DNA from: Marsupella aquatica
Lineage: Eukaryota > Plantae > Marchantiophyta
DNA length: 64,000 nucleotides
NCBI GenBank assembly: GCA_973895155.1
Contig: OZ316894.1
Coordinates: 13,449,580 to 13,513,579, forward strand
Direction: 5' to 3'
Below the pieces are notes generated by a model that searched no databases, had not been told where the DNA came from, and was given only the letters and a program-made list of their open reading frames with translations. Within the stretch, counting starts at the first letter, position 1, and every line of letters starts with the position of its first letter. The translations under genes were made by a program, and so were the position numbers. Shown in pieces: positions 660-32,434 of the stretch.

Positions 660-3600
660 TGTGGTGCGTCCCATGGCTCCCTAAACCCAAGAAACCCCCC
701 AGCTCAAGCCGATTCCCGCAGGTTTCGTGCTTGGCGAGGCCGTTTCCGCGGCTTAGCGGCATGGGACGCTGCTAACCTTCTACTACTACTATTAACATTT
801 TACACACATATACTGGACAGATCCTTCATCGGGTCATGAGATACGTAGCCGGCCTAATATAGGCCTTCCCCTGTCTTCCCCTGTCTTCCCCTCCGTCTTG
901 TTAGGTATGTTTGGATTCCGCCGCCGGAATGATCCCCAATAGGCTTGGTTAAGCCGCTAAGACCTCTCTCAGCTCGACACATCCAACTCTCACTCCCCTG
1001 CTTACTTTCCTTCCTTCTGTTGATGTGGGCACTCTTCACACAAGTTAATGCGACACACAAATAGCAAAATGACTCATTCTGACTGAGTCATACCATGCAC
1101 TTGCCATACAAACAGTACATCTCATACACAAGTTCTGCGAACTAAGCCGTGAGGCCAACTCTATTCAGCTCTTAGGCATGAGGAAACATGAATATACACA
1201 AGGGTCACTGTATGACTAACCGAGAGCTTCTTGTACTACTTGATCCCAGCCCGGCTGGTGCAAACTAAAAACTTGCTAAAGAAGAGGCCCTGAGCTCCCC
1301 GCTGCCCAGGTACTTATCCTGGTAGTGGATCCGCCATTCTTTGCATCGTAAGCCTAATCTACCTGACAGTAATCTACTTGCCCGAATCTACCTATGTACA
1401 GCAAGGCAGGAGCACAAGTGTTGCTCCTACCAGTGGGACCGCAATCCCACTAAGCTAAGTGTCAGGGCCGCTCCTGGTTCTGATCCTAATCCTAAACGTG
1501 GAGATCCGCGCCCGCCCTGCCCACTCACGCCTCCTCCCTCCACGTCCGCCCTCCCTAAAAGGAACGGCGCCCTTGCACCGTCATGACACCGGTGGTGGAT
1601 CCTCAATGGACGCCCCCAACACTTCCTCCTCAGTCACTGCCGTTGGCCCGCCTACTGACAGATTACCTGCCCTTGACCGAGTCAACTCTCCATCGGCCTG
1701 ACTGGGTCCACCTTCGGCTTCAGCCTCGACACCGGCCTCGGCAATACCCACGGCTTCGGCCTCAGCCACTCCCACGGCTTCGGCTTCAGCCACTCCCACG
1801 GCTTCGGCTTCAGCCACTCCCTCGGCTTCGGCCTCAGCCACTCCCTCGGCTTCGGCCTCAGCCACTCCCACGGCTTCGGCTTCAACCACTCCCTCGGCTT
1901 CGGCCTCCCCTTCCCCTAGGGTAGTTGGATCCTTAGCCGTGACCCTGTCTGGGGTCGGTGCTGGGTCTACCTCCTTGATCACCACGGCCTGTGAAGTCGT
2001 ATTACTCCTTGACCCTGAAGGTTTCCGCTTCTTCTTCGTTGGTGGCTCGGCAGCTGGTCCCTTCCCCTTCCCACTTACGTCCGGCACTGGTGCAGTTGAC
2101 GCGGCTTGTCCTTCGGCAATTACCACCCCTGGTAACTGGTTTGTCCCAACGGGAGATGGACCTGCTGCAGCTAAGCATTTAAATACTGCGGCTTGTTTCT
2201 TCAGCCGCTCTGTTTGGTTGTCGGCCCGCCGCTGTAGGTTCTCCATCTTCCTCGTGATTTCCTCCAACTCCTCTTGGGTTTCATCCAGGTCCTTACGTGC
2301 CCCCTCCAGCTCGTTTTTGGCCTCCTCCTGCTCCCTGTGGGCTTCCTCCAATTCCTTCTTCAAGGTAGCCCTCTCCTCCTGGGTTGCTCTTAGCTCTTTG
2401 TCGAGCTCTGCAATGATGACAGACTCCATCTGGTTCATCTTGGCGTAAGTCTGTTCGAGCATCTCGTCCTTCTCCCTTAGGTCGGCCTTGAAGCTGGCCG
2501 TCAGGGACGCAAGCTCCTGCTGCAGCGCCATAATCCCTTGATAGGATTTCCCTAACTCGACCTCCTTCTGCTCAAGGGCTCCGCGGATTTTCTCGAGCTC
2601 CCCTTTCAACGCCCATTCCTTTCTTTGGGTCTCCGCCATGGCCCGGCTGTTGGCTGTTATGTGGGCCTCCTCTGTATTCTTCAGCTCTTGCTTCCACTTC
2701 TCCCTCTCTTTGATCGTGTCGGCCAACTCTTCCTGCGTCTGAGTCAGTTTATCCTTGATATTCTGATTATCAGCCTGCACGGTGTCCAACTGCCCCTGCA
2801 TGATGTTCAGCTCATGTCGTTTAATCCGTAGTTCATCTTGGGCTTTCTTGGCCGCCCTTAGATCTTCAATCTCGGCTTCCATCCTCCTAAGCCGCCGAAT
2901 GACCTCGTCCTTCTTGCTTCTCTCTAAAGCCACCGCTTCTTCTAATTGGTGCTTCTCCAACTGCTCCCTATGGAAAAAGGGTCCTATCTCCAACTCCTCT
3001 CCAAAGATGTCGAGCGCAAGTTCCCCACACATCTCACCATACTCCATGGCTCTATTCTTAGCGTAGGTGGAGTAAGTAGAAGTGATCGGCATCGCCCATC
3101 GTGGCCTCTGCTCCCAAGCCGTCCTGCGGATCTCTTCAATCGTGGCTAGAGGTTTGCTTCCTTTTTCGGCTAGCCGCCTGATGTCCTCCGGCCAATCTCC
3201 TCCTGGTAAATCCTTTTCCTTAGCCAGGGCGGCCTCTTCCTCCTGCTTGATTCGCTCCTGAAATTCCTGCACCGTCTGTTTTATGCCGTCGAAGCTCGGG
3301 GGAGCAACATCTGGTGGGGGAGACTCAGGGCTACTCTGCTGGTTGGGGTCCCCTCGCACTACCCTTGGAAGTGTGGGGACAAACCGGCCACAGGTCCTTA
3401 CTCCTGGAACGTGATGGTCCGACCCATAGCCGGAATTATCATGGCTGCAGTCCTCCACTGCCTCCTCTACCTCTTGGACGTCCGGCTTCTCCCTCTCCTC
3501 TTCCTCGGTAGGAGCTTCAGGCAATTCTGCCTCAGATTCGGAGCTTGAGGTTCCCACGTACATTCGAACACCTGGCTTGGATTCCGGCCTGATTCTCTTC

Positions 3601-5414
3601 TTGTCTCCAGCAAAGGGGTTTTCTCTTGTGGCCGGTGTAGGCCTACCTCTGTAGTAGTGTCCTGCATTGTTGCCGTTGCCGTTGTTGTTGCCGATGCCGA
3701 TTTCTTTTCTTTCTCCAGTAGTTTCAGCAGACTCTGCATGCCTGGTTGCTGCATCGGCAAGTCTTCCTTCCTGGGCCTAAACACCTGCTCGATCGTAGGA
3801 CTAACAGGTGGTTGAGGCTTCTCAGCCAACGGCCTCGGCGTTGGAGCTTCCTCGGGTGCCCTTACCTGCAGGGGAAGTACCGGGGCAAAAGTCTGTCCTC
3901 TGGCATACCGGCACAACAGCGGCATGTGATAGCCAAGCCGCGACACGCTCCCCATGCCGATTACCTGCTGCTCCTCCTTTAAGATCTTCTTCAATTGGTT
4001 GAGGAGGTACCCGTTGTAGTCCCGGCTTGGGTCTGGCCTTTCTGCCAGATAGACCTGTGCCTTGCCGATCTCTGCCCTCGGCAAGTTACAATGCATGGTC
4101 ACCCGCAAGAAGTCGATCATCTCTCCTATGTGCGGGTTGGTGCAGGTGTTCCGGAAGAAGCCATTCTTCGTTGATGGCCCGGGGAACGACCGGAACTCCT
4201 TGTCAGGCAAGGTCTTCCTGGTATCAACTTTGGTCTTATTGCCTATCGGCAGGCCAAACACTTCGGCAATTACCTTGGGAGTAAGATAGAAATCCTTCCC
4301 ATATATCCTCGTGCAATTGGTCTCGGGTTCCCATGACCCCACGAATTCTAATAGGTCTGACTCCGGTACCTCCGGCTTCAGCCATGGTAATCTTACAAAG
4401 GCCTCCAAGCCGGATCCGGCCATGAAGCCTTGGTACTTCTTGGTCTGCATGGCCGTAAAGCATGCATCCTCCTCCCGTGCAAAATGTAGTTGCACCTCCA
4501 CCGGTAGGGTTGCCGCCCAGCCCTTCCAGGTGTCATCCCTGGTTGGAATGGCCTTGATGGGATCGACCTCCTCCTCTTCGGCTTCTCCCTGCCTCCTGCT
4601 CTGCTGCTCGGCTGGCTTCTTTGGTGCCGCCGACCTCGTTCTTTTTGCCGGGGTGGCTTCATCGTTGACGGCTCCCTTCCTTTTCATCTCTGCTGCCGTG
4701 GAGGTTTCTCCTAGCACCGTTGCCCGGGTCCACCTTTCCGTGCTACCCTTTAATTCCCAGTGTATGTCGTTGCAGTTCTTGATGGCCTCTCGGATGCCGA
4801 CGACGCTGTCTTTGCAAAACAGAAGATCGTCGAGTTGATTGGAAGTAGGCGTCCACAGGAACTCGTCCTTGATGAGTTCGCCTCCTAAGAAAGCCATCTT
4901 CTGCAGCTCCCACAATCGAGCGAACTCCTGCCATTCTCGAGCTGCCCTTTCTGACTCCTCGTCCTCGTAAGTCTTGATGTACTCAGTTGCCCGTTCGAAC
5001 AGGCATCCCCAGAAATGTGCCGCTTGATTGACGTTGCTCATACCCTCCTTAGGTCGATCGTCGGTATCTACTCTCTCCCCGAGTGCTTGCCTAAGCAGCT
5101 GACAGTAGTTGGCCTCCCGTAGTCGTCTGCCTAGTTCGTGCTCGCAAATGAGCCACCATCTCCTGCAAGCGCTCCTTACCCCTCTCCTCTGCCGGTCCTT
5201 CTTCCCGTTGATCCTTCCTAGCCGCCGACGCTTAACACGCCCTAACCCTAATCGGGTTTTCACCCTCAGCCTTACCTCCGGCCTCTGCCCGGGTTCCATG
5301 GTTGCCCCTAATTGTTTATATTTTCCTTGTTTTGTCACTATACTAAGGTGTTCCTAGGGTGCCTTCCTGCTTTACCCACTTAACCGGCCGAGTGATTCCT
5401 GTCTAGGCATCACA
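660..5414 (-). repeat. 3' LTR of element A (4755 bp)
   Basis: Begins TGTGATGCC (minus) right after the PPT and ends ...GCACCACA at the TSD; direct repeat of 11639-16387 with roughly 20 differences seen by eye. Confidence 0.95.
1581..5338 (-). pseudogene. LTR-encoded ORF, 3' LTR copy, split by a 1-bp deletion at ~3630
   Basis: ORFs 3467-5338 and 1581-3563 together match the 1252-aa ORF of the 5' LTR; cttgtg|gccgg here versus cttgtgagccgg at ~14602. Confidence 0.9.
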
Positions 5415-8400
5415 TAGCTCCCCACTTAATTGTGAAGCGTCCTCGCGAACAACTTCATCTTCGTCCATATAGTATTTCTTGAGGCGGTCATAATGGATGC
5501 AAACTGGATATACCTCCCCCGTAATGTTGGCCAATTGTACGGAGCCATTGGGGAACATCATGGTTACTCTAAAGGGTCCTAACCAGCGAGTGTAAAGCTT
5601 TCCTGGGAACCTACTATACCTACTGTCATAAAGTAGCACAAGATCACCGGTATGAATACTAACTACTTTTAACCTTTTATCATACTGCTGCTTCATGATA
5701 TTCTATCTATATTCTACTCTCTCGGCTGAAATCATTCTCGCTTCCTCTAAAGCTTCTAACCTATATTCTCGCTCCTTTAGGCTCTCCTCCGCTGAGGCTC
5801 TTTCCTCAATTGTAACTTGAAATGTCGGTATCTCAAGTTGCATGGGTACCAGGGCTTCTTGTCCAAAGGTTAAGAAGAAGGGTGTATGACCAATAGTGGA
5901 TTTATAGGCAAGATTGTAAGCAAAAATAGCAGCAAACAATTTATCATCCCAATCGAGTTTGTTCTGAGCTACTGTCTTGTTCAATATATTTCCTATGATT
6001 CCGTTTGCTCGTTCTGTCAACCCGTTTGCCTTTGGATGGTAGGGAGTAGTAGGCCTATGTTTAACTAAATACTGCTCATTTAAACGACTAATTATATCAT
6101 TCAAAAAATGGGTTCCTCTATCACTAACTAATTCTAGGGGTGCTCCATACCTGGTGAAGATCTGCTCATACATGAATCTAGCCGTAGTAATTGCATCATC
6201 CTTCGTTGTTGGTCTGGCCTCTACCCATTTAGTTGCATAATCCGTAGCCAGGATTATGTACTTGTTCCGTCGAGGGTGGGTCAGTGGTTTCAGAGGTCCA
6301 ATGTAATCAATACCCCACTTCTCGAATGGTGCCAGAGGTAGAATAGGGTGCAGTGGATGCCTGGTGGACGCCCTTGGTCCTCCCGCTCGTTGACAAGGAT
6401 CGCATTGTTTGATAAACTGATAGACATCTTTGTGCAAGGTGGGCCACCAGTAACCGGCATTTAATATCTTCTTAGACGTGGTTACTGGGGCAAAATGTCC
6501 TCCGGCCTCCTCTCCATGCATGGCCCGTAGGACTCGTTTTACCTCTCTCTTTTCCAAACACCTTTGAATCGTGCCGTTGATTCCATGCTTGTGCAGTATG
6601 CCTTTAATGCACTGATACTGTCTGACCTTCCGCACAAAGACTGCGGCTTGCTCTCGGCTTAATCCTGGCTGTAATCTGGAAGTGCTGAGAAATTGTAAAA
6701 TCTCAGGGTACCATGTACCAGCTATTTCCACAACGAATAGCTCCTCGTCGGGGAATCGATCATCGATGCAATCCGTGGCAGGTTTACCTGTGATCCTTGA
6801 AAAGAAGTCGGCATTGGCATGTAACTTTCCCGGCTTGATCCTCAGCTCATAGTCAAACTCCTGTAATAGCAAAATCCATCTTGCTACTCTGCCTGTAAGG
6901 TCCGGCTTATTGACTAGGTACTTCAAACTTTCATGATCAGTATGAAAGATTACCTTGTACCCTAGTAAATAATGCCTAAACTTTTTACAAGAATAAATGA
7001 CTCCTAATGCTTCTCTTTCCGTGGTAGAGTAGTTTCGTTCGGCATCGGCAAGCTGACGGCTTGCGAAGTATATGGGATGGTCCCTTCCTTTCTCATCCAA
7101 CTGACTTAGTACTGAGCCAATACAGAAGCCCGAGACATCTACAAAAACATGAAAATCTTTGTTCCAGTCCGGTGCTATCATGACTGGGGCCTCTACTAAC
7201 ATCTGCTTCAATTCTACCACCGCTGTGACTCGTTCGGGTGTGGGTTCGAAGTCTGCTCCTGCCTTGAGCATATTGGTTAATGGTAAAGCCAGCTTGGCAA
7301 AATCCTTGATGAACCGGCGATAGTAACCAATGCATCCCAAGAAGGATCTTACATCCTTTATGTTCTTAGGTTGCATGATATCTAGCCATACTGCTAGCTT
7401 ACCTTTGTCAATCTCAATGCCCTTCCTTGATACCTTGTGACCTAGTAGCACCCCCTCGGTTACTGCAAAAAAACATTTATCTGGGTGTAACTTGAGACCC
7501 ACCTCTCTACATCTCATGAAGGTTTTCCTGAGGTATTTAGCATGTTTCGATGCCTTCCCGAATACTGCAAAGTCATCAATGAAGATTTCCATGAACTTTC
7601 TCAAGTAATCATGAAAAATGTTCACCATTAATCGTTGGAACATAGCTGGTGCGTTGCAGAGTCCAAACGGCATACGATTGAAGACATAGATCCCCCATTC
7701 CGTGATGAAGGCCGTCTTGATTTGGTCTTCTTGCCGAATCCTGATTTGGTTATAACCAGAGTATCCATCCATGAATGAATATAGTTCATGACTGGCTACC
7801 ATGTCTAGTACCATATCAGTAAACGGTAAAGGAAAATGGTCTTTTAATGTTGCTTCATTCAGCTTCCTGTAATCCTGACAAACCCGGATCTTGGGTTTAC
7901 CATCGGGTCCAGCTTTCTTGGGAACTATCACAATTGGAGACACCCAGTCTGAATGCAGGACTGGAGTGATGAATCCAGCTTCCACTAGTTTGTCGATTTC
8001 TGTTTTGACCAACAGGGAATACTTCGGGTTCATCCTTCGAATTGGTTGTCGAAATGATTTGGCTCCTAACATGAGATCAATTCGATGTTCCCCTAGTGTT
8101 GGATCTACTCCCTTTAGATCTTGGTGACTCCATGCAAACACATCCTGAAATTCAATCAATAAGTCACTGATCTCTTTCTCGAGCTCAGGTGCTAGGTTTC
8201 TCCCTAAGTTCAGTTCTCTTCCCTCTCCTAAGTCGAGCTTCCGATATTGCCGTGCTTGGATCATATTAATCTGCTTCTTCAAATTCGGGTCCAGTTCGGC
8301 TTCCAGTCTCTCTAATCTCATACCTCCATAAACTGGGATCTCGGCTGGACTAGCCGAGTCGGTCCCTTCCTTGGTGTCCATAGATTGTCCCCTTACTGGT

Positions 8401-8669
8401 CTATTCGGTTTTGAATTAGTGGTCGGCTCCCCTTCCTGCCTTGGCTCTAGATCGTGTATGTCCATCTCATCCACCTCTTGCTCCTGAGAGTTAGGCCGCT
8501 GTGCTCTCTCGGCTTCTAATAGGGCCTCAATTTGTTCTGCCCTCGTAATCGGCTTGTATGCCGATCCCTTGGTATTTAATTCCTTGCCGATGATCGATGG
8601 CGTTGTGGACCCCGTCGGCTCTGCCACAACGCCTGCAGAAAATCCACTGTCCCTGCTACTGCTCCCCAC
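5403..8669 (-). CDS. pol: pol (RT, RNase H, integrase with GPF tail) of element A; one in-frame TAG at 5703-5705
   Basis: RT motifs DHFPLPF, DGYSGYNQI, MPFGLCNAPAMFQR, FIDDF; RH FVDVS, NYSTTEREALG, TDH; INT HHCC and WGIDY, VSDRGTHF, NGLTER; ORF 5403-5696 (KLYTRWLGPFRV) is in the same frame; element B has CAG at the stop position. Confidence 0.93.
5415..5427 (-). promoter_or_regulatory. Polypurine tract (AAGTGGGGAGCTA) of element A, inside the last integrase codons
   Basis: Purine-rich tract directly before the 3' LTR TG; identical in element B (37114-37126). Confidence 0.8.
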
Positions 8670-11377
8670 TTAGCCGTTTCATCCAATTGGTCTACATCCT
8701 TTACTTCCTCCGGAATTGCAGCTAAAAAGGTGGATTCTATTGTAAAGCAGTCCTCGACCTCTTCGTCTTCTTCTTCCAAGTCACCTTCCATTGGTTCTTG
8801 CCATAATCCGCTGGGGGGTACCTCTGGTCCAAAGACACCTTCTTCGGTTAGGTTAGTGAGGCATTCTAACCAACGTACTTCATCGGCTGACTCCAGTCCA
8901 CTGTCGTACCCATCTACTTCCCTTATGCTTTTCCTACGGTCATCCTTAGTGTCCCAGGATACCGTGATAGAGGGGGTCCCGAAAGTGAACTGCTTTTTAC
9001 CCCAATCTTCTATTACCTCGGCTAGGTACAGCCATGGCCTACCAATCAATAGCCGGAATGACGTAGGATTTACCGGCTTCATTACTACATAGTTAATGCT
9101 AAAGAAGATACCTCCTATCTCTGTCTTGATGCCGGTTAACACTCCCGTCGGAACGACCTGATATCCATTGGCCATGTTCAACACTCTTCCAGTCATCTCC
9201 GGTGTTAGACCCCACCCTTTTGCTGTTGAATCAATCATAATACATACCCCTGATCCTCCATCGATGGGTACCCGTAGTAATAATTCTCCTTGAATCATTA
9301 ATGGTAATGCTGGGGCTCCTTGATCTTCTTCTATCATTAGTACGTCAGATCTGGTTGCTACCTTGGGTAATCTCGGCTTGCCGAGAATAGCCTTCCTTAA
9401 TTGCTTCCGGAAGTACGGGCTATTTTTCAATAGTTGACCTACTGTTGCCGAGACTCTAGATTCTAGTACATCTTTAGCCAGGTCATAGGGAACAATCGGC
9501 TTCTCTTCTGGTGGTGTTTCCGTCTTGGATTCGGCCAGTTTTGCCACGCTAGTCTCCACAGTTGTTGGGTCTTCCGAAGCAAACAATGCTTTTGCTCGTT
9601 TTACATCCTTGGCAATGGCTTCGGTATTCTCCAGGGTTTCTAATTCTCTTAGTTGTTCCTTAACACTAGCCGTAACAAAGGGGTAGAACAACTTAGGATG
9701 ATCTCGATTGAAGTCGCTATCTTGTGAAGGATTGGTTTCACTGGTGGGCTCATGGCTTACCTGTATTGCCGGAGCCCTCCCTTCTCCTTCTGTTGATGTT
9801 GACGAAGAGTCGATCCTTTCCTCCGTAACCTTCCCTTTATTTTTGGCCAGCCCATCCCACCTTTCCTTCCTTCTGGTAGATCGAGTAGAGACCCGGTAGC
9901 AATCATGATCTAAATCCTCCTCTGAGAAGGTTGATAGGGCTTCGGCCTCATCATCAGATGGTACGAACTCTGCCTCGGCATCCTCTTGCCATCCTAGTTC
10001 GATCTGGTTGATTTGAACTCCTCCGGGGGTAGTACCTGGCGGTAAGATCTTGATCGGCAAAAGCTTATGATTTGCGGCCAGGCCTGCCAACCAAGTAGGA
10101 CATTGCCCTAGCATATGACCTTCCTGTCGGCATCCCATACATAGCTGAGCTGGTTGTCCATCACCCTGTTTGCGTGCATTCAGGCATTCTCTAGCAAAAT
10201 GGCCAGGTTGACCACAATTATAGCACGCCGCAAATCTTTGCACATTCGGCCTAGGAGGTACTGACGGGTTCTGAATAATCCGAGGATACATCTCTCCTGG
10301 ATTGTTCCTTAACCCTGACCACAGAGATGCAGGTCTGTTGGATAGGTCTCGTGCTCCAGTCTCACTGATGCCGAAAACACTATCAGCGGCATCTCCCAAA
10401 AAGTACTCTACTTCTCCCTGACATGGTCTGATCTCGGCCACATGCCGAACATGATTAGTATTAAGCTTAGGACACGCATCTTTATGGTGTCCGGTTTTAT
10501 AACATAAGGCACACCATACAGAGCTATCCTCCTGTACTACCTTCTTCTTTGGTTTTACCTCTGCAATGATAGCCTTAAGTTGCTCGGTAAGGGCTACGAT
10601 GTTATCTGGTGGCTTAGCCTCCATCTTGACTTTCGTCTTCCCTCTCCTTCTGCCCTTCCTTTTCCTAGTTTTTTCTTCTTCAGAACTAGAAGATGACTCA
10701 CTCTTGCTACTCCCACTATCCGAGCTTGACTTATCACTTCTAGACTTCTTGGAATGTTTCTTCTTCTTATCTTTTTTCTTATGGGGTGATCCCTCCTCTG
10801 ATGAGGAACTCTCAGACTTAAGCTGTTTCTTCCGGCTTGTGATATCTGCATTAATGTATAATTGAATATCCTTAATTGCTTCGGCTAAAGTCTCCGGGTT
10901 CTCCTTCCTAATTGCAAAACTCATCTTCTGTGGCAAAGCATTCACCAACCATTGAAGTTGCATACCTTCAGATGCATTGGTCTTTGTACGTCTTACCAGT
11001 TTCTGAAAGCATTGCAAGAACTTCCTGAAGGATTTGTTCTCCTTGAACCGAAGTTGTCCCAACTTCAGCACTGCTAGTTCTGAAGTTCCAATGGGTCGAA
11101 ACTCCTTAACAAAGAGCGTTTTGAAGATATCCCAGATGGCTTGATCTTCCACATCTAATGCTCTGTACCAAGGCCTAGCCTCACCCTTGAACAGGCCGGG
11201 AAGAATCTGCATCTTGATGGCCGATTCTCCATTTGCTGCAGCGGTTCCCTCGAAATCATCCAACCATTCGTCCAGATCCTCATCTCCTCTCCCATGAAAT
11301 GCCTTGTAATGTATGCGCGACCGCTGGCTCAATCTGGTCCCTGGCCTCTCGTCTGGCCGTGCCTCTGGTTCCCCCAT
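8576..11377 (-). CDS. gag: gag-protease ORF of element A (933 aa)
   Basis: Retrotransposon gag core (FHGRGDEDLDEWL...GEARPWY); three CCHC knuckles (CALCYKTGHHKDAC, CYNCGQPGHFAREC, CMGCRQEGHMLGQC); aspartic protease IDGGS and LLIGRPWL. Confidence 0.93.
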   Translation of the reverse strand: MGEPEARPDERPGTRLSQRSRIHYKAFHGRGDEDLDEWLDDFEGTAAANGESAIKMQILPGLFKGEARPWYRALDVEDQAIWDIFKTLFVKEFRPIGTSELAVLKLGQLRFKENKSFRKFLQCFQKLVRRTKTNASEGMQLQWLVNALPQKMSFAIRKENPETLAEAIKDIQLYINADITSRKKQLKSESSSSEEGSPHKKKDKKKKHSKKSRSDKSSSDSGSSKSESSSSSEEEKTRKRKGRRRGKTKVKMEAKPPDNIVALTEQLKAIIAEVKPKKKVVQEDSSVWCALCYKTGHHKDACPKLNTNHVRHVAEIRPCQGEVEYFLGDAADSVFGISETGARDLSNRPASLWSGLRNNPGEMYPRIIQNPSVPPRPNVQRFAACYNCGQPGHFARECLNARKQGDGQPAQLCMGCRQEGHMLGQCPTWLAGLAANHKLLPIKILPPGTTPGGVQINQIELGWQEDAEAEFVPSDDEAEALSTFSEEDLDHDCYRVSTRSTRRKERWDGLAKNKGKVTEERIDSSSTSTEGEGRAPAIQVSHEPTSETNPSQDSDFNRDHPKLFYPFVTASVKEQLRELETLENTEAIAKDVKRAKALFASEDPTTVETSVAKLAESKTETPPEEKPIVPYDLAKDVLESRVSATVGQLLKNSPYFRKQLRKAILGKPRLPKVATRSDVLMIEEDQGAPALPLMIQGELLLRVPIDGGSGVCIMIDSTAKGWGLTPEMTGRVLNMANGYQVVPTGVLTGIKTEIGGIFFSINYVVMKPVNPTSFRLLIGRPWLYLAEVIEDWGKKQFTFGTPSITVSWDTKDDRRKSIREVDGYDSGLESADEVRWLECLTNLTEEGVFGPEVPPSGLWQEPMEGDLEEEDEEVEDCFTIESTFLAAIPEEVKDVDQLDETAKWGAVAGTVDFLQALWQSRRGPQRHRSSARN
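8586..8645 (-). promoter_or_regulatory. Predicted -1 ribosomal frameshift signal (G GAT TTT plus pseudoknot) between PR and RT
   Basis: Heptamer at 8639-8645 in the gag frame; 5-nt spacer; 10-bp stem GGCGTTGTGG/CCACAACGCC; loop GCCGA complementary to downstream TCGGC; pol is in the -1 frame; conserved in element B. Confidence 0.8.
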
Positions 11378-11615
11378 GTCGGTTGGAGACTCACTTCTCC
11401 TTACCGACTATTCTTCGGGTATGTCTTCTTCGATGCCACTTCCAGTTTCGGAGCTACCAGCTCTTTCTGCCCCTCTCAGTCGCTGTGTATCATGCCACCC
11501 GGCGAGCTGCTGCAGTCGAGCTCTCTCCCGTTGAATCACTCTTTCTTCCCTCGGCGTAAGGTCAGTCATTACCTACGCTTCCGTTCTAACTTCATATCTC
11601 ACGGCTTAAGAAATG

Positions 11616-11634
11616 CCCCCTCCATCTAGCGCCA
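11616..11634 (-). promoter_or_regulatory. Primer binding site TGGCGCTAGATGGAGGGGG, probably tRNA-Asn
   Basis: 4 nt after the 5' LTR end; near match to the reverse complement of the plant tRNA-Asn(GTT) 3' end (...CCCCTCCTTCTAGCGCCA, recalled from memory). Confidence 0.8.
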
Positions 11635-12552
11635 AAAATGTGGTGCGTCCCATGGCTCCCTAAACCCAAGAAACCCCCCAGCTCAAGCCGATTCCCACAG
11701 GTTTCGTGCTTGGCGAGGCCGTTTCCGCGGCTTAGCGGCATGGGACGCTGCTAACCTTCTACTACTACTATTAACATTTTACACACATATACTGGACAGA
11801 TAGGGTCATGAGATACGTAGCCGGCCTAATATAGGCCTTCCCCTGTCTTCCCCTGTCTTCCCCTCCGTCTTGTTAGGTATGTTTGGATTCCGCCGCCGGA
11901 ATGATCCCCAATAGGCTTGGTTAAGCCGCTAAGACCTCTCTCAGCTCGACACATCCAACTCTCACTCCCCTGCTTACTTTCCTTCCTTCTGTTGATGTGG
12001 GCACTCTTCACACAAGTTAATGCGACACACAAATAGCAAAATGACTCATTCTGACTGAGTCATACCATGCACTTGCCATACAAACAGTACATCTCATACA
12101 CAAGTTCTACGAACTAAGCCGTGAGGCCAACTCTATTCAGCTCTTAGGCATGAGGAAACATGAATATACACAAGGGTCACTGTATGACTAACCGAGAGCT
12201 TCTCGTACTACTTGATCCCAGCCCGGCTGGTGCAAACTAAAAACTTGCTAAAGAAGAGGCCCTGAGCTCCCCGCTGCCCAGGTACTTATCCTGGTAGTGG
12301 ATCCGCCATTCTTTGCATCGTAAGCCTAATCTACCTGACAGTAATCTACTTGCCCGAATCTACCTATGTACAGCAAGGCAGGAGCACAAGTGTTGCTCCT
12401 ACCAGTGGGACCGCAATCCCACTAAGCTAAGTGTCAGGGCCGTTCCTGGTTCTGATCCTAATCCTAAACGTGGAGATCCGCGCCCGCCCTGCCCACTCAC
12501 GCCTCCTCCCTCCACGTCCGCCCTCCCTAAAAGGAACGACGCCCTTGCACCG

Positions 12553-15500
12553 TCACGACACCGGTGGTGGATCCTCAATGGACGCCCCCAACACTTCCTC
12601 CTCAGTCACTGCCGTTGGCCCGCCTACTGACAGATTACCTGCCCTTGACCGAGTCAACTCTCCATCGGCCTGACTGGGTCCACCTTCGGCTTCAGCCTCG
12701 ACACCGGCCTCGGCAATACCCACGGCTTCGGCCTCAGCCACTCCCACGGCTTCGGCTTCAGCCACTCCCACGGCTTCGGCTTCAGCCACTCCCTCGGCTT
12801 CAGCCTCAGCCACTCCCTCGGCTTCGGCCTCAGCCACTCCCACGGCTTCGGCTTCAGCCACTCCCTCGGCTTCGGCCTCCCCTTCCCCTAGGGTAGTTGG
12901 ATCCTTAGCCGTGACCCTGTCTGGGGTCGGTGCTGGGTCTACCTCCTTGATCACCACGGCCTGTGAAGTCGTATTACTCCTTGACCCTGAAGGTTTCCGC
13001 TTCTTCTTCGTTGGTGGCTCGGCAACTGGTCCCTTCCCCTTCCCACTTACCTCCGGCACTGGTGCAGTTGACGCGGCTTGTCCTTCGGCAATTACCACCC
13101 CTGGTAACTGGTTTGTCCCAACGGGAGATGGACCTGCTGCAGCTAAGCATTTAAATACTGCGGCTTGTTTCTTCAGCCGCTCTGTTTGGTTGTCGGCCCG
13201 CCGCTGTAGGTTCTCCATCTTCCTCGTGATTTCCTCCAACTCCTCTTGGGTTTCATCCAGGTCCTTACGTGCCCCCTCCAGCTCGTTTTTGGCCTCCTCC
13301 TGCTCCCTGTGGGCTTCCTCCAATTCCTTCTTCAAGGTAGCCCTCTCCTCCTGGGTTGCTCTTAGCTCTTTGTCGAGCTCTGCAATGATGACAGACTCCA
13401 TCTGGTTCATCTTGGCGTAAGTCTGTTCGAGCATCTCGTCCTTCTCCCTTAGGTCGGCCTTGAAGCTGGCCGTCAGGGACGCAAGCTCCTGCTGCAGCGC
13501 CATAATCCCTTGATAGGATTTCCCTAACTCGACCTCCTTCTGCTCAAGGGCTCCGCGGATTTTCTCGAGCTCCCCTTTCAACGCCCATTCCTTTCTTTGG
13601 GTCTCCGCCATGGCCCGGCTGTTGGCTGTTATGTGGGCCTCCTCTGTATTCTTCAGCTCTTGCTTCCACTTCTCCCTCTCTTTGATCGTGTCGGCCAACT
13701 CTTCCTGCGTCTGAGTCAGTTTATCCTTGATATTCTGATTATCAGCCTGCGCGGTGTCCAACTGCCCCTGCATGATGTTCAGCTCATGTCGTTTAATCCG
13801 TAGTTCATCTTGGGCTTTCTTGGCCGCCCTTAGATCTTCAATCTCGGCTTCCATCCTCCTAAGCCGCCGAATGACCTCGTCCTTCTTGCTTCTCTCTAAA
13901 GCCACCGCTTCTTCTAATTGGTGCTTCTCCAACTGCTCCCTATGGAAAAAGGGTCCTATCTCCAACTCCTCTCCAAAGATGTCGAGCGCAAGTTCCCCAC
14001 ACATCTCACCATACTCCATGGCTCTATTCTTAGCGTAGGTGGAGTAAGTAGAAGTGATCGGCATCGCCCATCGTGGCCTCTGCTCCCAAGCCGTCCTGCG
14101 GATCTCTTCAATCGTGGCTAGAGGTTTGCTTCCTTTTTTGGCTAGCCGCCTGATGTCCTCCGGCCAATCTCCTCCTGGTAAATCCTTTTCCTTAGCCAGG
14201 GCGGCCTCTTCCTCCTGCTTGATTCGCTCCTGAAATTCCTGCACCGTCTGTTTTATGCCGTCGAAGCTCGGGGGAGCAACATCTGGTGGGGGAGACTCAG
14301 GGCTACTCTGCTGGTTGGGGTCCCCTCGCACTACCCTTGGAAGTGTGGGGACAAACCGGCCACAGGTCCTTACTCCTGGAACGTGATGGTCCGACCCATA
14401 GCCGGAATTATCATGGCTGCAGTCCTCCACTGCCTCCTCTACCTCTTGGACGTCCGGCTTCTCCCTCTCCTCTTCCTCGGTAGGAGCTTCAGGCAATTCT
14501 GCCTCAGATTCGGAGCTTGAGGTTCCCACGTACATTCGAACACCTGGCTTGGATTCCGGCCTGATTCTCTTCTTGTCTCCAGCAAAGGGGTTTTCTCTTG
14601 TGAGCCGGTGTAGGCCTACCTCTGTAGTAGTGTCCTGCATTGTTGCCGTTGCCGTTGTTGTTGCCGATGCCGATTTCTTTTCTTTCTCCAGTAGTTTCAG
14701 CAGACTCTGCATGCCTGGTTGCTGCATCGGCAAGTCTTCCTTCCTGGGCCTAAACACCTGCTCGATCGTAGGACTAACAGGTGGTTGAGGCTTCTCAGCC
14801 AACGGCCTCGGCGTTGGAGCTTCCTCGGGTGCCCTTACCTGCAGGGGAAGTACCGGGGCAAAAGTCTGTCCTCTGGCATACCGGCACAACAGCGGCATGT
14901 GATAGCCAAGCCGCGACACGCTCCCCATGCCGATTACCTGCTGCTCCTCCTTTAAGATCTTCTTCAATTGGTTGAGGAGGTACCCGTTGTAGTCCCGACT
15001 TGGGTCTGGCCTTTCTGCCAGATAGACCTGTGCCTTGCCGATCTCTGCCCTCGGCAAGTTACAATGCATGGTCACCCGCAAGAAGTCGATCATCTCTCCT
15101 ATGTGCGGGTTGGTGCAGGTGTTCCGGAAGAAGCCATTCTTCGTTGATGGCCCGGGGAACGACCGGAACTCCTTGTCAGGCAAGGTCTTCCTGGTATCAA
15201 CTTTGGTCTTATTGCCTATCGGCAGGCCAAACACTTCGGCAATTACCTTGGGAGTAAGATAGAAATCCTTCCCATATATCCTCGTGCAATTGGTCTCGGG
15301 TTCCCATGACCCCACGAATTCTAATAGGTCTGACTCCGGTACCTCCGGCTTCAGCCATGGTAATCTTACAAAGGCCTCCAAGCCGGATCCGGCCATGAAG
15401 CCTTGGTACTTCTTGGTCTGCATGGCCGTAAAGCATGCATCCTCCTCCCGTGCAAAATGTAGTTGCACCTCCACCGGTAGGGTTGCCGCCCAGCCCTTCC

Positions 15501-16311
15501 AGGTGTCATCCCTGGTTGGAATGGCCTTGATGGGATCGACCTCCTCCTCTTCGGCTTCTCCCTGCCTCCTGCTCTGCTGCTCGGCTGGCTTCTTTGGTGC
15601 CGCCGACCTCGTTCTTTTTGCCGGGGTGGCTTCATCGTTGACGGCTCCCTTCCTCTTCATCTCTGCTGCCGTGGAGGTTTCTCCTAGCACCGTTGCCCGG
15701 GTCCACCTTTCCGTGCTACCCTTTAATTCCCAGTGTATGTCGTTGCAGTTCTTGATGGCCTCTCGGATGCCAACGACGCTGTCTTTGCAAAACAGAAGAT
15801 CGTCGAGTTGATTGGAAGTAGGCGTCCACAGGAACTCGTCCTTGATGAGTTCGCCTCCTAAGAAAGCCATCTTCTGCAGCTCCCACAATCGAGCGAACTC
15901 CTGCCGTTCTCGAGCTGCCCTTTCTGACTCCTCGTCCTCGTAAGTCTTGATGTACTCAGTTGCCCGTTCGAACAGGCATCCCCAGAAATGTGCCGCTTGA
16001 TTGACGTTGCTCATACCCTCCTTAGGTCGATCGTCGGTATCTACTCTCTCCCCGAGTGCTTGCCTAAGCAGCTGACAGTAGTTGGCCTCCCATAGTCGTC
16101 TGCCTAGTTCGTGCTCGCAAATGAGCCACCATCTCCTGCAAGCGCTCCTTACCCCTCTCCTCTGCCGGTCCTTCTTCCCGTTGATCCTTCCTAGCCGCCG
16201 ACGCTTAACGCGCCCTAACCCTAATCGGGTTTTCACCCTCAGCCTTACCTCCGGCCTCTGCCCGGGTTCCATGGTTGCCCCTAATTGTTTATATTTTCCT
16301 TGTTTTGTCAC
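12553..16311 (-). CDS. Intact LTR-encoded protein (1252 aa open frame; likely ATG start at 16014, 1153 aa, or at 16272): plant-transposon/env-like domain, long coiled coil, acidic repeats
   Basis: Uninterrupted 3.76-kb ORF entirely within the LTR. The motif GLEAFVRLPW...DLLEFVGSW...IYGKDFYLTPKVIAEVFGLP resembles extra-ORF domains of plant retroelements (ATHILA ORF1 / Transposase_32-like; by eye). It also has a heptad-rich E/K/Q segment of ~250 aa and a KKKRK NLS-like motif. Confidence 0.85.
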   Translation of the reverse strand: MTKQGKYKQLGATMEPGQRPEVRLRVKTRLGLGRVKRRRLGRINGKKDRQRRGVRSACRRWWLICEHELGRRLWEANYCQLLRQALGERVDTDDRPKEGMSNVNQAAHFWGCLFERATEYIKTYEDEESERAARERQEFARLWELQKMAFLGGELIKDEFLWTPTSNQLDDLLFCKDSVVGIREAIKNCNDIHWELKGSTERWTRATVLGETSTAAEMKRKGAVNDEATPAKRTRSAAPKKPAEQQSRRQGEAEEEEVDPIKAIPTRDDTWKGWAATLPVEVQLHFAREEDACFTAMQTKKYQGFMAGSGLEAFVRLPWLKPEVPESDLLEFVGSWEPETNCTRIYGKDFYLTPKVIAEVFGLPIGNKTKVDTRKTLPDKEFRSFPGPSTKNGFFRNTCTNPHIGEMIDFLRVTMHCNLPRAEIGKAQVYLAERPDPSRDYNGYLLNQLKKILKEEQQVIGMGSVSRLGYHMPLLCRYARGQTFAPVLPLQVRAPEEAPTPRPLAEKPQPPVSPTIEQVFRPRKEDLPMQQPGMQSLLKLLEKEKKSASATTTATATMQDTTTEVGLHRLTRENPFAGDKKRIRPESKPGVRMYVGTSSSESEAELPEAPTEEEEREKPDVQEVEEAVEDCSHDNSGYGSDHHVPGVRTCGRFVPTLPRVVRGDPNQQSSPESPPPDVAPPSFDGIKQTVQEFQERIKQEEEAALAKEKDLPGGDWPEDIRRLAKKGSKPLATIEEIRRTAWEQRPRWAMPITSTYSTYAKNRAMEYGEMCGELALDIFGEELEIGPFFHREQLEKHQLEEAVALERSKKDEVIRRLRRMEAEIEDLRAAKKAQDELRIKRHELNIMQGQLDTAQADNQNIKDKLTQTQEELADTIKEREKWKQELKNTEEAHITANSRAMAETQRKEWALKGELEKIRGALEQKEVELGKSYQGIMALQQELASLTASFKADLREKDEMLEQTYAKMNQMESVIIAELDKELRATQEERATLKKELEEAHREQEEAKNELEGARKDLDETQEELEEITRKMENLQRRADNQTERLKKQAAVFKCLAAAGPSPVGTNQLPGVVIAEGQAASTAPVPEVSGKGKGPVAEPPTKKKRKPSGSRSNTTSQAVVIKEVDPAPTPDRVTAKDPTTLGEGEAEAEGVAEAEAVGVAEAEAEGVAEAEAEGVAEAEAVGVAEAEAVGVAEAEAVGIAEAGVEAEAEGGPSQADGELTRSRAGNLSVGGPTAVTEEEVLGASIEDPPPVS
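12688..12880 (-). repeat. 24-bp in-frame tandem repeat encoding (GVAEAEAE/V)n
   Basis: Repeated cggcttcggcctcagccactccc units; also at ~1715-1905; shorter or absent in the older LTR copies. Confidence 0.85.
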
Positions 16312-17473
16312 TATACTAAGGTGTTCCTAGGGTGCCTTCCTGCTTTACCCACTTAACCGGCCGAGTGATTCCTGTCTAGGCATCACAACTTGATAGCTCT
16401 TTATCACTAGGAACTACGGGAGGGACGCTCCATAAGAAGGAACTACCTCTATTTCCATTAAGCCTTTGCTTCTCCTTGAGACTATGCAGATGTATTTGGT
16501 TTCCGTCACCAGAAATGGGTATTCTTTGGTTTCCACCGCTGGAAATGTCCCCCTACCCGGCAAGACAACTAATCTAGGTCTCCTCCATCCAAAGAGAAGA
16601 CTTCTGGACTCACAAATATCATATGAGCAACATGCTAATCACAAGGGCCTCAAGATTTCAGATGAGTGCACATCAACAATTTCTTTCCCAGAAACGCGCT
16701 GAAATTTCATAAGAACTTCAAAGGAAGTACATGGGTAGGTTGTCACTACCTACTTGCTATACTTTAGCTTCTTCAACTTCTACTACTTAACACTATGGTC
16801 CTTTCAAGCCTCAAGGCATACACTTGAGTTCTAGTACCCCTAGAACATCTACCTTAGTTCCCCTAAGGTCTCTTAGTGCTACTCCTTGATTCTCCATACG
16901 TGGACCCACACAAAGTAACTCACACCAACTTAAGTACTCCTTGCTTGGCTCCAACTCATCACAAAGTCCAAAACCACCCCAAAGGCCAGCAAGTGACTCA
17001 CCACTAAAAAAAGACCAGCCCACCTTTCAAGGGGGTCAAAGATCCTTACTTATCCTCCTAACTATCTCACTAACTCACTTGTTTGTCTTACCTAACTAAT
17101 GAGCTAGTTGGTGGCCTTTTGAAAGCCTAAATCAACTCCTTGATTTCAGCCCTTCATTCAGGTCCACCTCACCTTCTGACTTGGCTGTCCTATCCCTCCA
17201 AATCAGGGACTAAGTCAGCCTCCAAAGTACAATCATCCCTATCTACCAAATAGCTCTAAAAATAGTAGAGGGATCAACTTCCAATGGCCCTCCAAGTTCC
17301 TCCAAGTTCCTCCAAAGTCTCCATATAACTCAGGTCCTTAGGTACCCTCCATGTTGGCTTTAAGGACTCCACTCCTTAACCTCCTTATTCCTGGACTCCA
17401 GAACCAGCCTAGGTCCCCTTGACATGAAAGAGCCCTTCTCCAGGCCTCACTCATCCGATTAGGGCCTTGCGAA

Positions 17474-20400
17474 TGTGATGCTTAGCCAGGAATCACTAGG
17501 CCAGTTTAAATGATAAAATAAGGAGTAAACCCTGGAAACACATTAGTGTAGTAGCAAAAATATGGAAAACATAAACAATTAAGGGTGGCTATGGAACCCG
17601 AGCCGAGGCCGGAAGTAAAAACGTTGGGGGAGGGAACACGATTAGGGTTAGGGCGCGCTAAGTGCCGGCGGCTATAGGTAACTAACGGGAAGGAAGTCCA
17701 GTCAGGAAGGGGTAAGGATCGATCGCAAGGAATGGCGGCTCATTTGCAAGCACAAACTAAGCAGAGGACTATGGGAGGCCAACTACTGTCCGCTGCTCAG
17801 GCAAGCACTCGGGGTGGAAGCAGATACCGACAATCAACTCAAGAAGGGTATGAGCAACGTCAATCAAGCTGCTCATTTTTGGGGATGCCTGTTAGAACGG
17901 GCAACTGAGTACATTGGGACCTACGAGGACAAAGAATCAGAGAGAGCCGCTCGAGAATGGCAGGAGCTCGCTCGACTGTGGGAGCTGCAGAAGTCTGCCT
18001 TCTTAGGAGGAGAACTCATTACGGCTGAATTCTTGTGGACGCCTACTGCCGACGAACTCGACGATCTTCTGTTTTGTGAGAACAGAATAGTCGGCATCCG
18101 GGAGGCCATCAACCGCTGCAACGACATACACTGGGAGTTGAAGGGTAGCACGAAGGGGTGGACGAAGGCAACCGTGCTAGGAGAAACATCCACGGCATCC
18201 GCTATGAAGAGGAAAGGGAACATCAATGAAGAGACCACCCCTGCAAAGAGAACGAGGTCGGTGGCACCAAGGAAGCCAGCCGAGCAAGGGAGCAAGAGGC
18301 AGGAAGAAGCCAAAGAAGAGGAGGTCGACCCCATCAATGTTGTTCCAACAAGGGATGACACCTGGAAAGGTTGGGCGACGACCCTCCCCAAGGAAGTGCA
18401 ATTACACTTTGCACGCGAAGAGGATGCATGCTTTACGGCTATGCAGACTCGGAAGTACCAGGGCTTGATGGCCGGATCCGGCTTGGAAGCCTTCGTAAAG
18501 TTACCATGGCTGAAGCCGGAGGTGCCGGATTCAGACTTATTAGAATTTGTGGGATCGTGGGAGCCCGAGACCAATTCCACAAGGGTGTATGGGAAAGAAT
18601 TCTATCTCACTCCCTGAGTGATTGCCAAAGTGTTTGGCTTCCCGATGGGCAATAAGACCAAAGTAGATACTCGGAAGACCTTGCCAAACAAGGAGTTCCG
18701 ATCGTTCCCAGGGCCATCAACAAAGAATGGCTTCTTTCGAAACACCTGCACCAACCCGCACATAGGAGAGATAATTGATTTCTTGCGGGTAACCATGCAC
18801 TACAACTTGCCGAGGCCAGAGATCGGCAAGGCACAAGTTTACCTGGCGGAGAGGCCAGACCCCAGCCGGGACTACAACGGATACCTCCTCACCCAATTGA
18901 AGAAATCTTGAAGGAGGAACAACAGGTGATCGGCAAGGGAAGTGCGTCCCGACTTGGCTATCATATGCCATTTTTGTGCCGGTATGCCTGAAGTCAGATA
19001 TTCACCCCGGTACTTCCCCTACAAGCAAGAGCACCAGAGGAGGTTCCGGAACAGAGGCCGGCAATAGAGAAACCGACCCAGCTCGACAGTCCTACAATCG
19101 AGCAGGTGTTTAGGCCGAGGAAGGAGGACTTGCCGATGCAACAACCAGGCATGCAGAATCTGCTGAAATTGCTGGAGAAGGAAAGGAGAACGACAACGGC
19201 AACGGGACCGGTACAAAATACTGCTCCCAAAGTCGGCCTAAGCCAACTTACCAGGGAAAACCCCTTTACCGGGGTCAAGGAGAGAAGGAGGCCGGAACAC
19301 AAGCCGGGAGTCCGAATGTATGTAGGAGCCTCAAGTCCCGAAGCCGAGGAAAAGCAGCTCGAAGCTCCTGGTCGCGACAGGGAGAAGAAGAGATCAACGT
19401 GGAAGCCGGAGGAACCGGGACCCGTGATCTGTGATCTGTGAGGCCGTGTTCACGGCAAAACCAGGAGAGCAGCGGGGGGAGTCGGTAGTCCAAGCCATAG
19501 AGGAGGCGGTAGAAGACTACGAACATGATGACTCCGGCTACGGGTCGGACCATCATCTTCCAAGAGTAAGGACCTGTGGCAGGTTCATCCCCACTCTTCC
19601 AAGAGTAGTTCGAGGGGACCCCACCCAGCAGAGCAGCCCCGAGTCTCCCCCACCAGATGTCGCTCCCCCAGCTTTGACGGCATAAAACAGATGGCACAAG
19701 AGTTTCAGGAGTGACTCAGGGAGGAAGAGAAGGCAGCCCTGGCTAGGGAGAAAGATTTACCAAGGGGAGAATGGCCAGAGCACATCAGGCAGCTTGCAAA
19801 AAAACGAAGCAGCCCTCCAACCATGATAGAAGAAATCTGCAAGGCGGCTTGGGAACAAAGGCCGCAATGGTTGATGCCGATGACTTCTAGTCACTCCACC
19901 TATGCTAAAGAAAGAGCCATGGAGTATGGGGAGATGTGTGGAGAACTTGCGCTCAGCATCTTTGGGGAGGAGTTGGAGCAGGGACCCTTTTTCCAGAGGG
20001 AGATGTTGGAGAAGCGCCGATTAGAAGAAGCGGTGGCTTTGGAGAGAAGCAAGAAGGACGAGGTCATCCGTTGGCTTAGGGCAAGGGAAGCCGAGGTAGA
20101 AGACCTAAAGGCGGCCAAGAAAGCCCAAGATGAGCTACGGATTAAGCGGCATGAGCTAAACATCATGCAGAGGCAATTGGATACCGCGTAGTCTGATAAT
20201 CAGATTATCAAGGATAAACTAACTCGGACCCAAGGAGAGTTAGCCGATGCGATCAAGGAGAAGGAGATGTGGAAGCAAGGGCTGAGAGACGCAGAGGAGG
20301 CCCACATAGCAGCCAACAACCGGGCCATGGCGGAGACCCAAAGAAGGGAGAGGGCGTTGAAGGGGGAGCTCGAGGATATTTGCGGAGCCCTTGAGCAGAA

Positions 20401-31400: not shown

Positions 31401-32434
31401 GGCTAGGTTGCGGCTGAGGCTGAAGCTGAAGCTGAGCCTGAGGTTGAGGCTGGGGTTGCATGGGCACGGGTACGGGTACGGGCACGGCTGAGTTGGTCAT
31501 GTTGGTTGATGGCCGAGTTCCCATGAAGCTCTGCAGGTGCTGGTAGAAGTTCTCCGAAGCGAGTGCGGACGCCCTTGTTGAACGGTTGGTATTGGACTCG
31601 CCGTTAATGACAGCCCGAACCCGGGCAGGGATGTGGTCGAAGTGATGTCGCTACAGGTCGATTGTAGCCGGGATGTTGAAGACCTCGTCCGGAAGCCGAA
31701 GCAATGCTTCCCAGAACCCGATATATTTGTCTCCGTTGAAGAAGTACCCAGATACCTCTGCTGGTCGGTAAAGCTCGCTCTGAGACGGGTAGTCAAAGTT
31801 AAGGACGTAGTGGTGTCGTCCTGCTAGGCGGATGGCTCTCTCGTATTCGCGTTCGATTTCGTATCGGCGCGGGTTGGCGTGTTTCAATGAATCGGCCAAG
31901 TGCCTTCCGGTAGATAGGAACTGCATCCAGAATTGAATGGCCGAGCTGGAGAGGATCGTGTGCGACATTCAGAGGAGATAGTAGTGGCGACCTAGAGAGA
32001 ACGAGAGAGCTGGGGTCGAAGCTGGCGTGCGGACTGATGGACTGGTGCACTACAAAGGGTTGGCTCCCCTTTTATACTTTGAGGGCTTGTCGATCCCCGA
32101 CGTCTCCTCGACGCCCATAGGCTGAACCGCTCACGCTTGTGGTGTACCGGCCACTCCGCCGGTCTGAGTCAGCGTGCGTCAGTGGCCGCTTCCTTAAGTT
32201 CGTTATACGGACCCGAGGGAGGGGCCCTTCCACGCTCGTAACCCGGGTGTGCGAATAGCGACCCGCCGCCAGCCCGAACCTGAAGTCCCCCTTATTGCCT
32301 AATGATGTCCTACCCCTAATGATTACCTAAATACTGTCGTTATGCTAATAATAGCGGCCTAAGACCCACCTAACGCACGTGCCGAGCGCAGTTAGACTGA
32401 ATCACTCATTAACCGCCATACCGGCAGCGTCACA
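28418..32434 (-). mobile_element. Family-2 solo LTR (4017 bp) carrying a homologous long ORF
   Basis: TGTCACG...CGTCACA termini; TSD AGAAT at 28413-28417 and 32435-32439; no gag/pol, PBS or internal direct repeats seen. Confidence 0.85.
29315..31968 (-). pseudogene. Family-2 LTR-encoded protein (~880 aa reconstructed) with one in-frame TAG (31651) and one 1-nt frameshift (~30625)
   Basis: 31651-31968 and 30304-31524 share a frame. GFEHLTSLPW...DMTEFVKNY...LRGRNMSLTEERLKMIFGLP aligns with the family-1 domain. Adding one G gives PRGEISAAQVIQVE (family 1: PRAEIGKAQVYLAE). C-terminal coiled coil. Confidence 0.82.

Follow-up and report, generated by a model that had tools for sequence, protein, structure and literature searches.

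A gene under purifying selection inside the long terminal repeats of a liverwort Ty3/gypsy retrotransposon, with a predicted VANC/PMD-like core domain

Coding sequence within long terminal repeats (LTRs) is familiar from animal retroviruses, in which sag of mouse mammary tumour virus (MMTV), nef of HIV and bel of foamy viruses lie in the U3 part of the LTR and are copied to both ends in each cycle. The products of these genes are a few hundred residues long. The additional open reading frames (ORFs) of retrotransposons have been placed in the internal region (Vicient and Casacuberta, PMC7264820). Here we describe a 64,000-nt stretch of the liverwort Marsupella aquatica (contig OZ316894.1, positions 13,449,580 to 13,513,579; hereafter the window), in which a retrotransposon, element 1, holds a gene of probably ~1153 codons within its 4.75-kb LTRs. 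A first-pass annotation of this DNA suggested that no such case is known to have been described for plant Ty3/Gypsy elements, and searches of the open-licence literature gave no description of LTR-resident genes in plant retrotransposons, nor of a VANC fold in retrotransposons. The accessible parts of Neumann et al. (PMC6317226), including supplements 4 and 5, mention no LTR-resident ORF, and the per-element table of that study could hold such cases. The accessible portions of the reports on Diaspora (PMC1142308) and on the Apopellia genome (PMC12885004) likewise contain nothing on LTR-resident ORFs.

VANC proteins bind short DNA motifs and erase the silencing of their own transposon family, as excerpts of PMC5735166 describe. 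According to portions of PMC13547354, VANC is structurally homologous to MAIN and the plant mobile domain (PMD), is described as dicot-specific and, like ATHILA products, has been modelled to oligomerise via coiled coils. PMD-C proteins counter Polycomb silencing at DNA motifs (10.1101/2024.09.27.615353, in part), PMD-A is Gypsy-encoded (PMC5418596, in part), and the available sections of Neumann et al. give LTRs of up to ~5 kb and a PMD in 57% of Ogre elements (PMC6317226).

Element 1 is a Ty3/gypsy LTR retrotransposon with TG..CA LTRs, a target-site duplication (TSD), a primer-binding site (PBS), a polypurine tract (PPT) and the order gag, protease (PR), reverse transcriptase (RT), RNase H (RH), then integrase (INT). 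It spans positions 660-16387 on the minus strand (15,728 bp) and is laid out as follows, with the source of each assignment in brackets.

655-659, no strand: left TSD, ACTTG (sequence; empty site in sequencing run X2)
660-5414, minus strand: 3' LTR, 4755 bp, TG..CA (self-alignment)
5415-5427, minus strand: PPT (AAGTGGGGAGCTA), directly adjoining the 3' LTR (sequence)
5703-8666, minus strand: pol, encoding RT, RH and INT (Pfam)
8576-11377, minus strand: gag-protease ORF, 933 aa (ORF list, Pfam)
11616-11634, minus strand: PBS, beginning TGGCGCTAGA, after a 4-nt spacer past the 5' LTR (sequence)
11639-16387, minus strand: 5' LTR, 4749 bp, TG..CA (self-alignment)
16388-16392, no strand: right TSD, ACTTG (sequence)

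Self-alignment of the window paired 660-5414 with 11639-16387 at 99.4% identity over 4756 columns. The two LTRs differ by 19 substitutions (17 transitions and 2 transversions), one indel of 7 nt and a single-nucleotide deletion at ~3630, and the Kimura two-parameter (K2P) distance of 0.004 indicates that the insertion is young. Four of 15 listed public sequencing runs were compared, and these covered 30, 30, 30 and 29 of the 30 bins of the window. In three contigs of run X2, position 654 was joined to 16388 with five letters in common, as in a pre-insertion target with a single ACTTG. Since the flank is repetitive, this junction is either an empty allele or a second copy of the target repeat, and both ends of the element are fixed either way. 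No run contig crosses an LTR, so the runs show that the family is present under four organism codes and not its layout there; one of them, X1, could come from the source sample itself. The LTR limits, ACTTG duplication, TG/CA termini, PBS and PPT of the first-pass annotation are borne out, and its proportions (~6.2 kb internal, LTRs ~60%) agree with the measured 6224 bp and 60%.

The gene and its main domains lie at these positions.

12553-16014, minus strand: LTR gene counted from Met87, intact, ~1153 aa (ORF, selection analysis)
1581-5041, minus strand: gene copy of the 3' LTR from the Met87 equivalent (first ATG at 5299), frame broken near 3630 by the 1-nt deletion
14833-15552, minus strand: core globular domain, aa 241-480, predicted VANC21/PMD-like fold (structure model)
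13123-13932, minus strand: long coiled-coil-like region of ~270 aa, aa ~781-1050 (sequence)

The frame in the 5' LTR is open from 16326 and runs from a first ATG at 16272 to 12553, which would give 1239 aa. It had been drawn earlier as 12553-16311, intact in this LTR and frameshifted in the other; this was correct apart from position 16311, which is no ATG start. The ratio of nonsynonymous to synonymous changes (dN/dS) was calculated from Nei-Gojobori counts with bootstrap intervals, after mapping the codons of four LTRs of one family to the intact frame. Codons 87-1239 gave a dN/dS of 0.22-0.26 in all six pairs, with upper 95% bounds of at most 0.32, and not the value of ~1 that would have spoken against a gene; the six pairs are not independent, because they share branches. 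Synonymous divergence among the diverged copies was ~0.4-0.5. The ratio was 0.09-0.15 in the core domain, similar to pol, and 0.17-0.26 in the coiled-coil region, and constraint was weak in an Ala/Glu/Val repeat near the C-terminus. As controls, pol gave 0.118 and gag 0.11-0.19, and the shifted and antisense frames of the LTR gene gave 0.69-1.35 in four diverged comparisons.

The signature of selection begins at codons 85-96, so translation probably starts at Met87 (16014) and the gene probably encodes ~1153 aa rather than 1239. The first ATG was also considered as the start and was rejected: codons 1-86 showed a dN/dS of 0.36-1.28 with five of six intervals spanning 1, and all three other copies contain stops there. 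The sense ORF of >1100 aa seen in the first-pass annotation is confirmed, with ~1153 aa from Met87, intact in the 5' LTR and split in the 3' LTR. The gene occupies 73% of the element 1 LTR, and we are highly confident that this retrotransposon carries an LTR-resident gene under purifying selection.

Four further LTRs with gene sequence were located in the window.

17474-22201, plus strand: 5' LTR of element 2, 4728 bp, decayed LTR gene, followed by a PBS as in element 1 (alignment)
22436-27199, minus strand: solo LTR A, 4764 bp, TSD GTCGG/GTCAG, decayed LTR gene (alignment)
37148-44591, plus strand: solo LTR B, TSD GAATC, interrupted by insert D (alignment)
28418-32434, minus strand: solo LTR C, read as a second family, 4017 bp, TG..CA, TSD AGAAT (sequence)

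The first three are ~4.75-kb LTRs with ~84% identity to that of element 1 and identical end bases, where short LTRs of ~0.9 kb would have been expected if the locus were a recombinant. Element 2 has its PPT at 37118, the same as that of element 1; solo LTR A is inserted in its leader and solo LTR B 21 nt into its 3' LTR. Element 2 and two solo LTRs flanked by TSDs, all with identical ends, show that the long LTR is the transposing unit and not a tandem artefact. Each of the three older copies (the 5' LTR of element 2 and solo LTRs A and B) carries 5-8 in-frame stops in the gene, which indicates that selection acts in the lineage that replicates and that inserted copies then decay. Sequence of the gene does persist in solo LTRs, as had been proposed, though every solo copy in the window is now disrupted by stops or frameshifts. 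Where the ORF ends, solo LTR B resembles element 1 (12553-12600 against the region at 44591); elsewhere it resembles other subfamilies, a patchwork that suggests recombination between subfamilies.

The insert at 28418-32434 has no internal direct repeat and is read as the solo LTR of a second family, known here from its LTR alone. It showed no DNA match to element 1 by blastn. Its sense ORF (31650-29315, one frameshift) is 29% identical to aa 263-409 of the LTR protein (E 2e-11). The arrangement is also alike, with a TATA box upstream at ~32076, a coiled coil following downstream and a tail of 0.9 kb.

To the protein itself, no Pfam family matched above the cut-off, and a profile search of PDB sequences gave nothing relevant. 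A search with aa 1-524 against 1.84 billion representatives returned 23 proteins at E<=0.001, mostly covering aa ~250-470, and two of the ten looked up were from Calypogeia fissa. A word-based search with aa 60-480 found none among proteins of 681-2169 aa, and a profile search among proteins of 1303-3720 aa, an uninformative band, gave no match. The AlphaFold2 model of aa 241-480, built from 19 sequences, reached a confidence (pLDDT) of 82; aa 87-240, modelled without an alignment, were poor (pLDDT 51). Foldseek against the PDB ranked VANC21 at the top (E 0.87, TM score 0.47; other listed rows at most 0.17). Among 48,161 chains compared with VIA-align, VANC21 alone reached Z>=5, with Z 8.4 and a root-mean-square deviation of 4.1 over 213 of 240 residues at 8% identity, and the next chain had Z 2.0; the identity of the core domain to VANC21 was 8-11% overall. 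The predicted resemblance to VANC21 thus stands alone and spans the whole domain, though its score is at a commonly seen level. The remaining protein has a helical N-terminal part, acidic linkers and basic, nuclear-signal-like runs such as KKKRK.

From the model, the product would be a nuclear, oligomeric DNA-binder, whose likely role is to bind the element that encodes it and to oppose silencing by the host in trans. We give about an even chance to the reading that it is an anti-silencing-type DNA-binding factor of the VANC/PMD fold. Several results weigh against it. The Foldseek E-value is 0.87, and models that lack a clear match typically reach a best Z of 7-8. Neither Pfam nor PDB-sequence profiles linked the protein to VANC21, PMD, DUF1985, ATHILA or Transposase_32; the profile probability for the Arabidopsis ATHILA ORF was 1%, and atlas leads to Transposase_32 and ATHILA scored 0.84-0.85, below 0.9. 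VANC21 is the sole solved relative of the fold, which in addition leaves the direction of the effect unfixed, because host PMD proteins act in silencing or against Polycomb. Target motifs amplified in tandem within non-coding DNA, the hallmark of VANC systems, were looked for and not found: no 5-7-mer exceeded shuffles in the LTR heads and tails of two families, where a low-copy motif may yet occur.

A relative with the gene outside the LTR was found in metagenomes. The best 80 of 576 loci from a pol scan were inspected, most of them angiosperm elements or too short, and one of these 80, L001, contained the core domain. L001 is a complete, circularised 10.7-kb element whose pol is 56% identical to that of element 1. 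Its LTR is ~990 bp and starts TGTGATG, exactly like the element 1 LTR. An internal ORF of 742 aa (locus region 3750-6580) is homologous to the LTR gene (HH probability 94%, E 1e-7, 165 columns) and lies between two identical 9-nt GGGGAGCTA PPT motifs, where the element 1 family has a single GGGGAGCTA at the end of pol. The linker of Athila4 and Calypso also contains a second PPT (PMC2829016, in part). Were plus-strand priming to move from the downstream PPT to the upstream one, the ORF would become part of the LTR; a move the other way would expel it. We infer that such a change of priming site, between two identical PPTs that flank the gene in relatives, brought it into the LTR, though the direction is not fixed. 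Two points tell against a simple version of this route: a relic second PPT in the LTR tail is not conserved (two of four copies), and the LTR of L001 is not similar to the LTR tail of the element 1 family. The first PPT motif of L001 is followed by GGATG, which resembles a decayed LTR start, and its gag-PR and pol are parted by a single stop, unlike the overlap in elements 1 and 2 described below.

How the gene would serve the element can be pictured in several ways. The fullest model is of a non-chromovirus Ty3/gypsy family whose 4.75-kb LTR hosts a ~1153-aa accessory gene, likely with its own promoter at the LTR start. Reverse transcription would copy the gene into both LTRs, and LTR-LTR recombination would leave solo LTRs as complete transcription units. 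The first-pass annotation had suggested that the gene is duplicated at every transposition. With an ORF located in U3, standard reverse transcription would pass on the 3'-LTR copy alone, which in element 1 is frameshifted; if the genomic RNA starts near LTR nt 125 instead, a giant R would contain the gene. In the widest form of the model, a bryophyte retrotransposon lineage has made its LTR an anti-silencing cassette whose solo LTRs de-silence the family in trans as promoter-gene-terminator units, and the VANC/PMD fold would be an old accessory domain of retrotransposons, found at the env position of Athila-like elements and predating the dicot VANC; this is speculative and we hold it to be unlikely. 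A competing view with somewhat better prospects, though still short of favoured, is that the gene is functional and its LTR position a by-product of the priming-site shift, so that one copy per element matters and the solos are dead passengers. The internal position in L001, the stops in all three older copies and the frameshift in one element 1 copy at only 0.4% LTR divergence agree with this view. It accounts poorly for a layout kept in two DNA-unrelated families, with TATA-like boxes upstream and at a cost of ~3.8 kb per LTR.

An anti-silencing factor must also be set against a DNA- or chromatin-binding factor that acts in the life cycle as an LTR trans-activator or integration tether and erases no mark, which we rate as a doubtful alternative. 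The fold and nuclear-signal evidence would serve it equally, it would do without the amplified target motifs that VANC needs, and nuclear regulatory roles for extra ORFs have been proposed (Vicient and Casacuberta, PMC7264820). The heavy nesting of the family into itself and other repeats of the window also speaks for it, though nesting is frequent in repeat-rich DNA. The characterised members of the fold, VANC and MAIN/MAIL, act on silencing, however. An env-like structural or movement protein of a virus-like particle is improbable. Such a role would suit the long coiled coil and the homology to the ORF that L001 carries in the env position, but there is no transmembrane stretch (the best 19-residue Kyte-Doolittle mean, 1.11, falls inside the Ala/Glu/Val repeat), viral structures gave nothing at E<=0.001, and the top fold match is a DNA-binding protein. 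That the long repeat is an artefact of tandem or recombinant short-LTR elements or of assembly duplication is hardly credible. A single 64-kb window was examined, which leaves some room for it, but element 1 and two solo LTRs of full length are bracketed by TSDs, the LTR of element 2 is of the same kind and adjoins its PBS and PPT at corresponding ends, the empty site occurs in independent contigs, and the LTR pair of element 1 differs at 21 places.

The LTR outside the gene contains several putative signals.

16287-16294, minus strand: predicted TATA-like box at LTR nt ~94, ATAAAC kept in four of four LTRs (sequence conservation)
16064-16152, minus strand: predicted intron of 89 nt in the 5' untranslated region, GT..AG ends kept in four of four LTRs (sequence conservation)
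11888-11901, minus strand: core of a ~30-nt predicted hairpin motif (common to three LTR families)

A GT donor-like site (LTR nt 236) and an AG (nt 324) delimit the predicted intron, and its splicing would drop two upstream ATGs. A 16-nt block with two TTAGGG units (16212-16227), telobox-like, is identical in all four LTRs, and the leader elsewhere is variable. The 0.9-kb LTR tail differs at 7-12% of its positions, fewer than at synonymous sites of the gene, as expected of LTR signals. The hairpin motif lies 180-350 nt from the LTR 3' end, and none of 200 shuffles reached its score in either of the two comparisons with element 1; it is a candidate packaging, dimerisation or priming signal. The motif also occurs at 28601 in solo LTR C and in the LTRs of a third family, the families having otherwise little or no DNA similarity.

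That third (D) family is represented by two solo LTRs of 2.5-2.8 kb, at 38913-41672 and about 51738-54200, with TSDs CAAGG and TCCCC. They have the tail motif, short tandem repeats and no long ORF, and may represent a gene-less state of the same LTR type. A D-family LTR interrupts a decayed gag-pol of another Ty3/gypsy lineage (54140-56580, minus strand). An ORF at 61411-61884 shows by eye an adenylate-kinase-like P-loop and is probably a host-gene exon adjoining the repeat cluster.

Within the internal region of element 1, the protease was identified by the D-G-G-S-G motif in the gag ORF alone, with no Pfam match for protease. The pol frame continues across the PPT to a stop at LTR nt 10-12 (window 5403-5427) in elements 1 and 2 alike; element 1 has in addition a premature stop at 5703-5705 that element 2 lacks. 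This stop and the frameshifted 3' LTR gene mean that element 1 is probably no longer autonomous, though its 5' gene copy is intact. In both elements gag-PR and pol overlap in different frames (about 8576-8669 in element 1), with a highly conserved stretch just 3' of the overlap, which makes this a candidate programmed frameshift or splice. A Pfam scan of pol gave hits neither for an additional RNase H of archaeal type, between or after RH and INT, nor for a chromodomain.

Among named pol matches, Calypogeia fissa came closest with 63-64% across a part of pol, against 49-53% for Riccia and 48% for Marchantia, and no relatives of pol were found among viral contigs. In a quick RT-RH tree of 76 rows, covering matches with at least 330 aligned residues, the element was sister to the Calypogeia rows with support 100, within a set including Riccia and L001. 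It stood apart from the angiosperm clade holding an ATHILA-ORF element, and the base relative to that Athila-like clade was not resolved. The PBS of element 1 may correspond to tRNA-Asn. In the accessible part of Neumann et al., the PBS of the Athila clade is tRNA-Asp in 72% and Asn in 12%, and the TSD of Phygy and Selgy is 4 bp (PMC6317226). Element 1 fits the OTA group without an extra RNase H and is Athila-like by REXdb features, which falls short of establishing clade membership.

LTRs are usually deemed non-coding, and solo LTRs inert scars or spare promoters, whereas here a selected gene makes up 73% of the LTR and such genes occur in two families. Genes of this kind, and the LTRs that hold them, are easily overlooked or misannotated as host genes. 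If the anti-silencing reading is true, every new copy and every leftover solo LTR would keep a gene that may aid escape from silencing, and LTR-LTR recombination, the host's main route of retrotransposon deletion, would leave a counter-defence gene behind. Through the link to the sole solved transposon anti-silencing structure, the extra ('env-like') ORFs of Athila/Tat-type elements, which have long gone unexplained, gain a testable function. The finding also bears on the origin of plant-mobile-domain genes, for which the available part of PMC5418596 leaves undecided between descent from retrotransposons and capture by them, and the twin-PPT relative L001 suggests a simple route for genes into or out of LTRs.

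The first-pass annotation had set the gene apart from known accessory ORFs, and this holds for its location in the LTR; the predicted VANC/PMD-type fold and the internal homologue in L001 bring it closer to them. Element 1 resembles the Athila clade (Athila4, Calypso, Bagy-2) in its lack of an extra RNase H and chromodomain, its 5-bp TSD, a PBS a few bases past the LTR and an extra sense ORF 3' of pol, and the second PPT of Athila4 and Calypso is matched by L001. In contrast to that clade, the extra ORF of element 1 lies past the PPT, inside the LTR, with no internal ORF between pol and PPT; there is no ATHILA ORF-1 match, gag-PR and pol are in different frames, and the RT groups with liverwort elements. 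With Ogre and Retand of the Tat group, as far as the accessible sources describe them, it shares a large size, LTRs of up to ~5 kb, an ORF of the PMD/VANC kind with a coiled coil, and a gag-PR separate from RT-RH-INT. Their extra ORFs (plant-mobile-domain, Transposase_28, SMC-like), however, are mostly antisense and in the internal region, and the extra RNase H of Tat was not detected in element 1. Retrosat2, RIRE3 and RIRE8 (Tekay) have LTRs of >3 kb and an extra ORF0 of unassigned role, but this is upstream of gag-pol rather than in the LTR and the lineage is different (PMC3485330, in part). VANC of the VANDAL Mutator-like DNA transposons and MAIN/MAIL (PMD-C) are alike in the predicted fold of aa 241-480, the coiled coil and, for VANC, a transposon-encoded accessory role; they differ in that identity is 8-11% with no profile match, tandem target motifs were not found, and the gene here is in a retrotransposon LTR. 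The U3 genes of retroviruses are the nearest parallel in position, but their proteins are unrelated, and the gene of element 1 encodes ~1150 aa and fills 73% of its LTR.

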